From positions 588,956 through 652,955 of the forward strand of contig JBAZNR010000001.1 in assembly GCA_041649175.1 (NCBI GenBank): a stretch of DNA of 64,000 nt. The letters are read 5' to 3'. The position numbers were made by a program, and so were the translations under genes. Of the stretch, positions 53,204 through 55,455 are shown piece after piece (positions within the stretch are counted from its first letter, which is position 1; each line of letters begins with the position of its first letter). The stretch comes from Candidatus Omnitrophota bacterium (lineage in GTDB: Bacteria > Omnitrophota > Gorgyraeia > Zapsychrales > JBAZNR01). A model generated the notes under the pieces. It was not told where the DNA came from. It made no database searches and saw nothing but the letters and a program-made list of their open reading frames with translations.

Positions 53204-54238
53204 TTGAAAACAATGAAAAAGATAATCGGCCTTACCTATGATCTAAAGCAAGATTGGACACCTGATGCAGGCGATCCGCCGGATGCGAATGCGGAACACG
53301 ATTCATCCGCGACTGTCGATAGCATTACTCAGGCGTTTGAATCGGCAGGGCATACGGTTAGAAAAATCGGAAATATCTTTAATCTTTTAAAAACGATCGA
53401 TCAGTTGAACGTTGACATTGTTTTTAATATTGCAGAAGGCCGTTTTGGACGTAACCGCGAATCACAAGTTCCGGTTCTTTTAGAAACAAAACGAATTCCT
53501 TTTGTCGGGTCTGATGGATTAGCCCTAGGGATCACCTTAGACAAAGTGATGGCGAAACGCGTTTTTATCGCTGAGGGAATTCCGACGCCGAAATTTTTTG
53601 AAGCGCGCAATTGTGAAAATCTGAAGAAACAAAACAGGATCGGTTTTCCCTTGATCGTGAAACCTTCTTGCGAAGGAACATCAAAAGGATTAACCGAGAA
53701 TGCGAAAGTCCATGATTTTAAAGGGCTTAAACGCCAGGTAGAACTAGTTACAACGCAATACAAACAACCGGCCTTGGTTGAAGAATTTATCCGTGGTTCG
53801 GAATATACCGTGGCGGTTTTGGGCAATGAACATCCTCAGGCGATGCCGGTCGTTCAGATCAATATTGACGGAAAAAAAGATCTGGGAGATGTGTTTTTTA
53901 CCTCCGATCGTGTTTCACTGCGCAAAGATACGGTGGAGTATATTTGTCCGGCTCAAATTTCAAAGAAGCTAAGTTCGCAAATGCAGGAATTAGCCGTTAG
54001 GGCTTTTAAAGCTTTAGGATGTTATGATTTTGCCAGGATCGATTTTCGCGTCGACAAAAAAGGAAAACCTTTTATGCTGGAAGTTAATCCTTTGCCGTCT
54101 TTATCTCAAGAAGATGCTTTCTTTTTTATCGCGCAGGCACGCGGGATCACTTACAATGATATTGTCAATGAGATACTTGGTTTTGGGTTAAGCCGTCACG
54201 GTTTAACCAATGGCAAATACAAGGAGGCCAAACGATGA
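53204..54238 (+). CDS. ATP-grasp ligase, D-alanine--D-alanine ligase-like
   Basis: Ddl-type N-domain (VDIVFNIAEGRFGRNRESQVPVLLETKRIPFVGS), central PLIVKPSCEGTSKGL, EYTVAVLGNE and C-terminal MLEVNPLPSL. Start may be the internal Met at 53213. Confidence 0.7.
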   Translation: MKTMKKIIGLTYDLKQDWTPDAGDPPDANAEHDSSATVDSITQAFESAGHTVRKIGNIFNLLKTIDQLNVDIVFNIAEGRFGRNRESQVPVLLETKRIPFVGSDGLALGITLDKVMAKRVFIAEGIPTPKFFEARNCENLKKQNRIGFPLIVKPSCEGTSKGLTENAKVHDFKGLKRQVELVTTQYKQPALVEEFIRGSEYTVAVLGNEHPQAMPVVQINIDGKKDLGDVFFTSDRVSLRKDTVEYICPAQISKKLSSQMQELAVRAFKALGCYDFARIDFRVDKKGKPFMLEVNPLPSLSQEDAFFFIAQARGITYNDIVNEILGFGLSRHGLTNGKYKEAKR

Positions 54239-55455
54239 ACGAAATCAATCCGTCGACAGCCGTAGAAATACAGCACGATGGTATTATAGTTGATCAAGCA
54301 CCGGCAACATCTGTCTCGGATAAGCCGAAGATCCCTTTGACGGCCGCGGAAAACCGCATCTTAAGTTTTTTTAAAGGAGCGACGCCGGTTGATTGGGAAG
54401 ATTGGCGTTGGCAGATCAGAAATAGAATTCGCACCAAAGACGTTTTATCTAAGATCATCAAAATGACTCCCGAAGAGGAAAAGGGCGTTGATGGGTGCAA
54501 GGATAAACTGACGATGTCTATTCCTCCTTATTTTGCCAGCCTTATCGATCCGGAAGATCCTAGCTGTCCTATTCGTTTACAATCAGTTCCTTTGGCCGCC
54601 GAAATGAAAAAATCAGCGCACGAGTTAACCGATCCTTGCGGAGAAGATAAAAATTCTCCCGTCCATGGATTAGTCCACCGCTATCCGGACAGAGTTTTAT
54701 TTTTAGTCAATGAAATGTGCGCGATGTATTGCCGTTATTGTACGCGTTCACGCATGGTGGGCGACGGGCAAAGAACATTGAATCCAGCGACGTATGAAGC
54801 GGCCTATGATTATATCCGTTCCAATAAAAAGATCCGCGATGTTCTTATTTCCGGCGGAGATCCTTTGACGTTGGGAGACGGGATGCTGGAAAGTATTATT
54901 CAAAACATTAAAGCTATTCCGCATGTTGAATTTGTGCGTATTGGGACAAGGATTCCGGTGACATTGCCACAACGCGTTACGCCGGAATTAGTCGCGATGC
55001 TTAAAAAATACAGTCCGATTTGGATGAGTGTTCATTTTAACCATCCTCGGGAAGTGACAAAACGAGTCAAGCAGGCTTGCGATATGTTGGCGGATAGCGG
55101 AATTCCGATGGGCAGTCAGACAGTTCTTTTAAAAGGCATTAATGACCGTCCGCATATTATGCGCAAATTGTTCCATGAACTTTTAAAGATCAGGGTGAGG
55201 CCGTATTATATTTATCAATGCGACCCGATCTTAGGATCCGATCATTTTAGAACACCGGTTTCGGTGGGAATTAATATTATCGAGAAGCTGCGCGGGCATA
55301 CCACCGGTTATTCGATCCCGACATTTGTTATTGACGGGCCCGGCGGCGGGGGCAAGATCCCCGTTGGCCCGAATTACGTTATTTCCTATAATAAAGGCAA
55401 ATGTGTTTTAAGGAATTTTGCCGGTAAGAAGTTTACATACTACGATCCGCAGTAA
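54235..55455 (+). CDS. kamA: lysine 2,3-aminomutase (radical SAM, KamA family)
   Basis: CAMYCRYCTRS CxxxCxxC radical-SAM motif in the KamA context; GGDPL; PLP-binding region. 4-bp overlap with the upstream ATP-grasp gene. Confidence 0.85.
   Translation: MNEINPSTAVEIQHDGIIVDQAPATSVSDKPKIPLTAAENRILSFFKGATPVDWEDWRWQIRNRIRTKDVLSKIIKMTPEEEKGVDGCKDKLTMSIPPYFASLIDPEDPSCPIRLQSVPLAAEMKKSAHELTDPCGEDKNSPVHGLVHRYPDRVLFLVNEMCAMYCRYCTRSRMVGDGQRTLNPATYEAAYDYIRSNKKIRDVLISGGDPLTLGDGMLESIIQNIKAIPHVEFVRIGTRIPVTLPQRVTPELVAMLKKYSPIWMSVHFNHPREVTKRVKQACDMLADSGIPMGSQTVLLKGINDRPHIMRKLFHELLKIRVRPYYIYQCDPILGSDHFRTPVSVGINIIEKLRGHTTGYSIPTFVIDGPGGGGKIPVGPNYVISYNKGKCVLRNFAGKKFTYYDPQ

Follow-up and report, generated by a model that had tools for sequence, protein, structure and literature searches.

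We analysed a 64-kb stretch of DNA (hereafter, the window) from a metagenome-assembled genome of Candidatus Omnitrophota, in which a gene for a Ddl-fold ATP-grasp ligase is followed directly by a gene for a lysine 2,3-aminomutase (KamA). The coordinates of this pair and of the elements around it are collected in Table 1. The ATG is a likelier start of the ligase gene than the alternative TTG, because the homologues of the ligase open with M-K-x-[IV]-G-L-T-Y-D-L-K. The original prediction had the stop of the ligase gene overlapping the start of kamA. Both open reading frames (ORFs) lie where they had been placed and the overlap is present: the TGA of the ligase gene (54236-54238) and the ATG of kamA (54235-54237) share the letters ATGA. 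A −4 overlap (in frame) was found in 13 of 32 related loci, and the remainder have mostly short gaps or overlaps. The strong terminator that had been predicted 3' of kamA was also recovered, as a long, GC-rich hairpin (−40.6 kcal/mol, z = −6.4 against shuffled sequences) with a T-run. It was overlooked by a simple terminator scan because of the limits that the scan sets on stem and loop. The next gene, rpsU, has a promoter-like sequence of its own (TTGACG-N17-TATTAT, 55548-55576). The ligase gene and kamA are predicted to form a co-transcribed, translationally coupled two-gene operon, and the neighbours of the pair in the window are PAC2, YjeF_N, Nth, S21, PfpI, PurH and FolC. Below, the pair and its counterparts in other genomes are called cassettes.

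Table 1. Features of the ligase-kamA locus in the window.
Feature	Position	Strand	Remark
Sigma-70-like leader promoter, TTGACA-N18-AAAAAT, with TG two bases before the -10	52977..53006	+	10/12 matches
Small palindrome TTTTCCGTCGGAGAAAA in the leader	53061..53077	+	Recurrence in relatives
Terminator-like hairpin AAGGGACUCGC / GCGGUCCCUU + U7; candidate attenuator	53162..53195	+	About 17 nt before the ligase ATG
Putative Ddl-fold ATP-grasp amide ligase, type "grasp1"	53213..54238	+	Alternative TTG start at 53204
Shine-Dalgarno (SD) sequence AAGGAGG of kamA, within the 3' end of the ligase gene	54221..54227	+	7 nt 5' of the ATG
Predicted lysine 2,3-aminomutase (radical SAM/PLP), short C-terminus, no Zn-site cysteines	54235..55455	+	406 aa
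Intrinsic terminator, operon end	55471..55524	+	Hairpin 55471-55514, then T-run UUCUUUUU
rpsU, next gene after the pair	55623-55787		Ribosomal_S21

KamA contains the Pfam domains Radical_SAM and LAM_C. We compared it with the NCBIfam models and found that it scored above the cut-off of the KamA family (TIGR00238; 350 bits, cut-off 199). The best equivalog model was that of the AblA-type lysine 2,3-aminomutase (TIGR03820). Its score of 521.2 bits is just under the cut-off of 525.4, because KamA spans only positions 5-362 of the 417 in the model. The models of glutamate 2,3-aminomutase (461 bits, cut-off 650) and arginine 2,3-aminomutase (415 bits, cut-off 600) gave lower scores, and the EpmB equivalog TIGR03821 was not reached (238.5 bits, cut-off 369.3). 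The sole match to a solved structure was the lysine 2,3-aminomutase (LAM) of Clostridium subterminale, 2A5H (501 bits, 57% identity, 368 residues).

The residues C125, C129 and C132 (CxxxCxxC), R134, D293, D330 and K337, in 2A5H numbering, were invariant in all 36 cassette KamAs (the window protein and 35 others). K337 is the lysine that carries pyridoxal phosphate (PLP), and R134 binds the carboxylate of lysine in LAM. D293 and D330 hold the epsilon-ammonium group of lysine in LAM and are replaced in glutamate 2,3-aminomutase. Because the residues for the Fe-S cluster, for PLP and for lysine are kept, KamA should convert free L-lysine to beta-lysine. Model scores and substrate residues are both in accord with the predicted lysine-type enzyme, as distinct from an EpmB, glutamate-type or arginine-type one. 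The cassette KamAs end at about residue 369 of 416, and C268 and the C-terminal Cys cluster are absent from all of them; the C268 position is R in the window protein. These cysteines are, we assume, the Zn site of the multimerisation region in the C. subterminale enzyme. The window KamA thus appears LAM-like by sequence and YjeK-like by length. A missing C-terminal multimerisation domain was the criterion by which Bailly and de Crecy-Lagard told YjeK/EpmB from LAM (PMC2821294).

The ligase matched the Pfam domain Dala_Dala_lig_C (PF07478) with an E-value of 2e-38 and 132 bits, and generic ATP-grasp models also matched it. Yet the curated Ddl cut-offs of NCBIfam were not reached. The best model, NF002378 (Ddl subfamily), gave 185.7 against a cut-off of 243, TIGR01205 gave 154.2 against 245.65, and every Ddl or Van equivalog model was far under its cut-off. 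An AlphaFold (AF2) model of the ligase, made with 38 homologues, was confident, with a predicted local distance difference test (pLDDT) score of 91.5. The best Foldseek matches of this model were DdlA/DdlB, with template modelling (TM) scores of 0.75-0.86 and 21-28% identity; Ddl enzymes were the only ones returned, and they gave no further hint on function. The N-terminal motif of the ligase is GLTYDLKxD...DPxDAxAExD, where Ddl has GGxSxExEVS. The database labels also differ: NCBI calls the ligase an "ATP-grasp domain-containing protein", and the Joint Genome Institute (JGI) label for its homologues is "D-alanine-D-alanine ligase".

The pocket residues of the ligase were placed solely through alignment to DdlB, for which the E. 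coli sequence (identical to 2DLN) was aligned with 66 domains of the family. The ATP, Mg and catalytic set K97, K144, E180, E187, R255, D257, E270 and N272 (DdlB numbering, as in what follows) was kept in the ligase, and since the catalytic residues are conserved, the enzyme should be active. The window ligase likewise keeps E15, which we take to bind the amine of the acyl donor in Ddl. Other positions have changed. Throughout the family, H63 is replaced by E and E68 by R, with the motif N-I-x-E-G-x-x-G-R-N-R-E. Within the clade of the window, K215 is replaced by V, I or L, Y216 is lost, G276 becomes S or C, S281 becomes D and L282 becomes A or V. The window ligase itself has V, S or a gap, D and A at the positions of K215, Y216, S281 and L282, and this pattern is shared throughout the Omnitrophota grasp1 clade. 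By this alignment, the residues that hold the carboxylate of D-Ala2 appear to be gone and an acidic residue to have been gained. The Gly/Ser loop of the ligase has an invariant Lys (E-G-[ST]-S-K-G), which might stand in for K215. Judged from its sequence, the protein appears to be an active amide ligase with an altered nucleophile site and not a Ddl. The partner of KamA is therefore a Ddl-family ATP-grasp protein, as had been predicted: it has the Ddl fold, yet it lies under the NCBIfam cut-offs and is without the residues of the D-Ala2 site.

The original prediction also pointed to genome context in relatives. A scan of one genome per species gave 49 loci with relatives of the ligase, 33 of them of Omnitrophota type, some under the record label "uncultured Planctomycetales". 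We found that a KamA homologue (58-78% identical) adjoins the ligase downstream, on the same strand, in all 28 Omnitrophota loci with enough flanking sequence; the other five of the 33 stop at a contig edge. Together with at least five other lineages, in which the gene order varies, these loci show that the linkage is kept. In most Omnitrophota loci, kamA is preceded by a tandem pair of ligase paralogues: grasp1 shares about 55% identity with the window protein, and grasp2 about 38%. The window has grasp1 only, as do L001, L002, L004, L006, L008, L014, L025 and L026, and a neighbour-joining tree groups the window with L001, L002, L004, L008 and L014. The single-ligase form is thus in the minority among the relatives, and two ligases in tandem are usual. 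In a relative whose protein is 64% identical (L050), the genes follow the same order: PAC2, YjeF_N, Nth, ligase, KamA, PfpI, PurH, FolC and MnmE. The pair looks like a part of the core genome in Omnitrophota.

Two observations concern the neighbours of the pair. A PAC2-family protein (PF09754; 50602-51621 in the window) is conserved 2-4 genes upstream of the pair in Omnitrophota (family f2, 12 loci), and we take it that older COG annotation put bacterial and archaeal relatives of PAC2 in the ATP-grasp superfamily. In the two-ligase loci L005 (9313-11982) and L015 (9216-11875), an EF-G paralogue comes soon after kamA. It matches NF009381 with 835 bits, under the cut-off of the EF-G equivalog, and it is followed by a 233-aa protein whose match to YchF is confined to the C-terminal third of the latter. 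Both genes are absent from this place in the window.

Cassettes also occur in other phyla, where kamA adjoins the ligase in L037, L039, L042-46, L048 and L049. The order is kamA-ligase-ligase-GNAT in Dehalococcoidia and a deltaproteobacterium (L039, L042-44, L049, L052-54), ligase-ligase-GNAT-kamA in Chlorobiaceae (L045) and ligase-kamA in Oscillospiraceae (L046) and Bacillota (L037), and Gemmatimonadaceae (L048) have a fused double ligase plus kamA. The Dehalococcoidia operons go on with MarC, a second GNAT, a GNAT-histone-deacetylase-like protein or an M20 peptidase, and a divergent helix-turn-helix regulator and MFS transporters lie nearby. The 159-aa GNAT of the other-phyla cassettes fails the AblB model, and the GNATs match generic GNAT or RimI-like models only. 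That an ATP-grasp enzyme takes the place of an acetyltransferase beside KamA, as was originally proposed, holds in the window, which has no GNAT there, with the qualification that cassettes outside Omnitrophota often do include a GNAT. E15 is kept in both ligases of Omnitrophota, whose cassettes are without GNAT. In the Dehalococcoidia and deltaproteobacterial cassettes, which have one, the ligase in second position carries V instead. This replacement might reflect an acyl donor that is N-acetylated and, in the larger cassettes, a scheme of protection and deprotection.

The ligase family is larger than the cassettes. Among 50%-identity representatives, 1020 proteins match the ligase at E <= 1e-30, and many of them are 550-790 aa long with two matched stretches, that is, two fused ligase domains. 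The window-like domain is N-terminal in some of the fused proteins and C-terminal in others (P0124-P0270; L041, 4960-7092; L048, 6015-8057). The context of a Bacillota sister clade is uninformative (QueT, flavin reductase, ABC transporter, SpoIIP).

The region before the pair (52964-53203; 27.5% GC) had been described as an AT-rich promoter region. A promoter-like site is indeed present, but the region is more than a promoter, being a conserved, operon-specific leader with an intrinsic terminator at its end. The promoter block CTTGACAA...TATGTTAAAAAT aligns in the closest relatives (L050, L004 and L014) and in two-ligase loci. Copies of the palindrome, with the consensus TTCCGnCGG(G)AA, stand close to the promoter in L004, L050 and L009-L017. 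They precede the promoter in two-ligase loci and follow it in the clade of the window, and they may act as an operator or form a small hairpin. Between the leader hairpin and the start of the ligase gene there is no SD sequence and no space for another promoter. About 25 Omnitrophota loci have a homologous hairpin with a T-run directly 5' of the ligase start, and its stem carries compensatory changes (GGCTC/GAGCC, GGACC/GGTCC, GAACC/GGTTC). These loci have a common layout: a strong promoter is followed, 100-190 nt further on, by a GC hairpin and its T-run, and the start codon comes within about 10-25 nt of these. Many leaders also contain GGAGG followed after 9-15 nt by TTG(A/G)AA. An SD sequence and a start codon could be assigned in 19 leaders, and in 14 of them this TTG(A/G)AA opens a mini-ORF, which is 1-7 codons long. 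The mini-ORF stops at the 5' base of the terminator stem or at most 17 nt from it. The window leader reads TTC in place of the mini-ORF TTG.

A profile hidden Markov model of the leader gave one match per locus, always at this position, and none elsewhere in about 650 kb; the window leader itself was under its threshold. Rfam had no match in the leader at gathering or E-value thresholds. A structured riboswitch aptamer was considered as well. In the alignment of the leaders, RNAalifold detected no consensus fold beyond the terminator, only sequence motifs and the terminator being conserved, and an aptamer is therefore unsupported. Because transcription must pass the conserved leader terminator, expression of the operon is probably regulated by attenuation. 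The leader is a candidate operon-specific attenuator, possibly a ribosome-dependent one, and protein-dependent attenuation is a candidate mechanism too. In L003 a second promoter follows the leader element, and the element may be an independent small RNA. Leader and terminator together are a candidate for a new cis-regulatory element.

Taken together, the genes and their context suggest that the pair probably uses ATP to join beta-lysine into a small amide or an oligopeptide; we hold this with moderate confidence. With a [4Fe-4S] cluster, radical S-adenosylmethionine (SAM) and PLP, KamA would convert free L-lysine to beta-lysine. The ligase, with its Ddl fold, would then use ATP and an acyl-phosphate to form an amide bond involving beta-lysine. 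The product would most simply be an aminoacyl-beta-lysine, beta-lysyl-beta-lysine or a short oligomer. That beta-lysine is a substrate of the ligase is inferred, as are the end of beta-lysine that reacts, the molecule to which it is joined and the role of the product in the cell. Substrates with extra ammonium groups would suit a ligase that has kept E15 and gained acidic residues at the H63 and S281 positions. One possible case is beta-lysine as the acyl donor, with an amine, possibly another beta-lysine, as the nucleophile. The GNAT, deacetylase-like, M20 peptidase, MarC and MFS partners in other phyla look like parts of small-molecule assembly. The pair in the window is the minimal form of a conserved cassette, in which one or two Ddl-like ligases and KamA are accompanied optionally by a GNAT and optionally by a deacetylase or an M20 peptidase. 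The originally proposed ATP-dependent amide ligation of beta-lysine thus finds strong comparative support in the non-Ddl ligase, the lysine-type KamA, the translational coupling and the conserved linkage, from which the product is extrapolated.

Several known systems resemble the cassette in part. AblA/AblB is the N-epsilon-acetyl-beta-lysine compatible-solute pathway of methanogens and some bacteria. It likewise has a LAM-type aminomutase in an operon with an enzyme that derivatises beta-lysine. However, the partner in the cassette is an ATP-grasp ligase, with no GNAT in the window, and the window KamA is without the C-terminal Zn-site region. EpmB/EpmA (YjeK/PoxA) has a KamA-family enzyme with a short C-terminus and an ATP-dependent ligase, and in both systems the ligase would join beta-lysine to an amine. 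The cassette ligase, however, has the ATP-grasp fold and is not a class II aminoacyl-tRNA synthetase paralogue, and no linkage to efp was found in the window and the 49 loci. With DdlA/DdlB and the Van ligases, the cassette ligase shares the fold, the ATP, Mg and acyl-phosphate catalytic residues and E15, whereas its gene is paired with kamA instead of mur or dcw genes, and its D-Ala2 carboxylate site is replaced.

Among enzymes of other pathways, Ddl-like MysD (mycosporine synthesis) and carnosine synthase form amides with an ATP-grasp enzyme by a similar logic. A natural-product precedent is the negamycin cluster (neg), in which the genes for making beta-lysine and for an ATP-grasp enzyme lie together (bioRxiv 10.1101/2025.05.27.656397). 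The logic that these systems share with the proposed cassette is that a beta-amino acid is produced or recruited and an ATP-grasp enzyme then forms an amide with it. Negamycin, MysD and carnosine synthase differ from the cassette in belonging to lineage-restricted clusters or being eukaryotic enzymes, while the cassette is a minimal two-gene unit that is phylum-wide and core-like. Unlike natural-product clusters, it is also without hydroxylase, N-N-forming or non-ribosomal peptide synthetase genes. The cassette would be a beta-lysine-using pathway assembled from known enzyme families. No description of the pair of KamA and an ATP-grasp enzyme turned up in the full-text literature searched, which did not include the amidoligase survey of Iyer et al. 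(2009).

Other explanations would give the pair a different role. If the ATP-grasp enzyme put KamA-made beta-lysine on Lys34 of EF-P or on a ribosomal protein, it would replace EpmA in protein beta-lysylation. This would agree with a pair that is core-genome-like in a reduced-genome phylum, with a KamA lacking the C-terminal part that is also missing from YjeK/EpmB (PMC2821294), and with the translation genes nearby (rpsU in the window; the EF-G paralogue and the YchF-like gene in two-ligase loci). The SD sequence and mini-ORF ahead of the leader terminator would also suit ribosome-sensing attenuation. However, KamA is LAM/AblA-like (521 bits and 57% identity, against 238 bits for EpmB with its cut-off of 369), neither the window nor the 49 loci yielded an efp gene, and the cassettes of other phyla carry GNAT, deacetylase or M20, MarC and two ligases. 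We know of no Ddl-clade ATP-grasp enzyme that modifies a protein, and we consider protein beta-lysylation unlikely. A role in the cell envelope, where the ligase would join beta-lysine to a precursor of peptidoglycan or to some other polymer, also seems improbable. D-aspartate ligase is an ATP-grasp enzyme that builds peptidoglycan cross-bridges, and an envelope role would be in keeping with the Ddl fold and the near-universal presence in Omnitrophota; the acidic replacement of S281 would suit a cationic acceptor or donor. Nevertheless, no mur or dcw genes lie near the pair in the window or at any locus, and the cassette is abundant in Dehalococcoidia, whose cultured members, to our knowledge, lack peptidoglycan. 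Nor do we know of any report of beta-lysine in peptidoglycan.

Two further explanations would separate the genes from each other, and both appear very unlikely to us. The ligase could be the housekeeping D-Ala-D-Ala ligase, its adjacency to kamA being incidental. Its best Pfam, NCBIfam and PDB matches are Ddl, and JGI names its homologues accordingly. However, it is under all curated Ddl cut-offs, retains none of K215, Y216, S281 and L282 and differs from Ddl at H63 and E68. The ligase lies outside a dcw or mur context, its linkage to KamA survives across phyla and rearrangements, and tandem and fused paralogues exist. Homologues also occur in Chlorobiaceae, Myxococcaceae and Gemmatimonadaceae, which are expected to carry ordinary ddl genes. 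The other explanation is that KamA works in lysine fermentation, or simply in making an N-acetyl-beta-lysine osmolyte, and that the ligase is unrelated. KamA lies within about 4 bits of the AblA equivalog cut-off and GNATs accompany the cassette in other phyla, as this would lead one to expect, but no kamDE, kdd, kce, kal or ablB-like gene was found among the annotated neighbours in the window. The annotated neighbours in L050 do not include 5,6-aminomutase, dehydrogenase or cleavage-enzyme genes either. Moreover, the 159-aa GNAT elsewhere is not AblB by model, and the translational coupling of kamA to the ligase gene is conserved.

Ligation of beta-lysine by the pair remains the reading that we prefer, and some points weigh against it. 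The alignment of the omega-loop, in which K215 and Y216 lie, is uncertain. No second ddl-like gene was found in the 64-kb window, the stretch covered, as would be expected if the ligase were the housekeeping Ddl. A survey of Omnitrophota does not mention peptidoglycan, lysine or ATP-grasp enzymes, and a paper on cell division in the Planctomycetes-Verrucomicrobia-Chlamydiae (PVC) group does not settle the presence of ddl in Omnitrophota. There is no kamA near the ligases of the Bacillota clade L031-35/L038 or near the fused Myxococcaceae protein (L041); the family is therefore broader and its chemistry not necessarily tied to beta-lysine. In Omnitrophota, the pair lies within a syntenic housekeeping block, and its linkage could be partly inherited gene order, a reading that is weakened because cassettes exist outside Omnitrophota. 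Finally, the host of the pair has no known cultured representative.

A bolder proposal can be added, to which we give a slim chance. The pair might serve a core, EpmA-independent beta-lysylation of a macromolecule in Omnitrophota (EF-P, a ribosomal protein or a cell-wall precursor), or it might make oligo-beta-lysine as a polyamine substitute, with a leader that senses the ribosome or a ligand.

Elsewhere in the window, we found two matches to the c-di-GMP-I riboswitch above the gathering threshold, at 45240-45358 (-) and 50337-50415 (-), with 44.3 and 36.0 bits. They lie upstream of two large minus-strand genes (43132-45105 and 48243-50318), whose products both have pilin-like hydrophobic N-termini, as judged by eye. 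One of these products has a C-terminal Hint/PT-HINT domain, and the other is very Cys-rich, with repeated C-G-D-G-x-C. A PyrR-binding-site RNA (11781-11888, +; 58.5 bits) lies directly 5' of the ORF run 11899-14646. From their N-terminal sequences, these ORFs are putative pyrR, pyrB and pyrC, and the RNA looks like an ordinary pyrimidine attenuator.

The known fates of beta-lysine are an acetylated osmolyte, the modification of EF-P, fermentation and a handful of antibiotics. The widespread cassette of KamA and a Ddl-like ligase points to another beta-lysine-derived metabolite or modification. Since it has only two genes, the proposal is directly testable by heterologous expression and liquid chromatography-mass spectrometry (LC-MS). 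The label "D-alanine-D-alanine ligase" given by JGI could inflate the counts of ddl in peptidoglycan reconstructions of uncultured lineages. The cassette is core-genome-like in the ultra-small Omnitrophota and common in Dehalococcoidia, and whatever is made from beta-lysine there would probably be an amide that these bacteria form at the expense of ATP.

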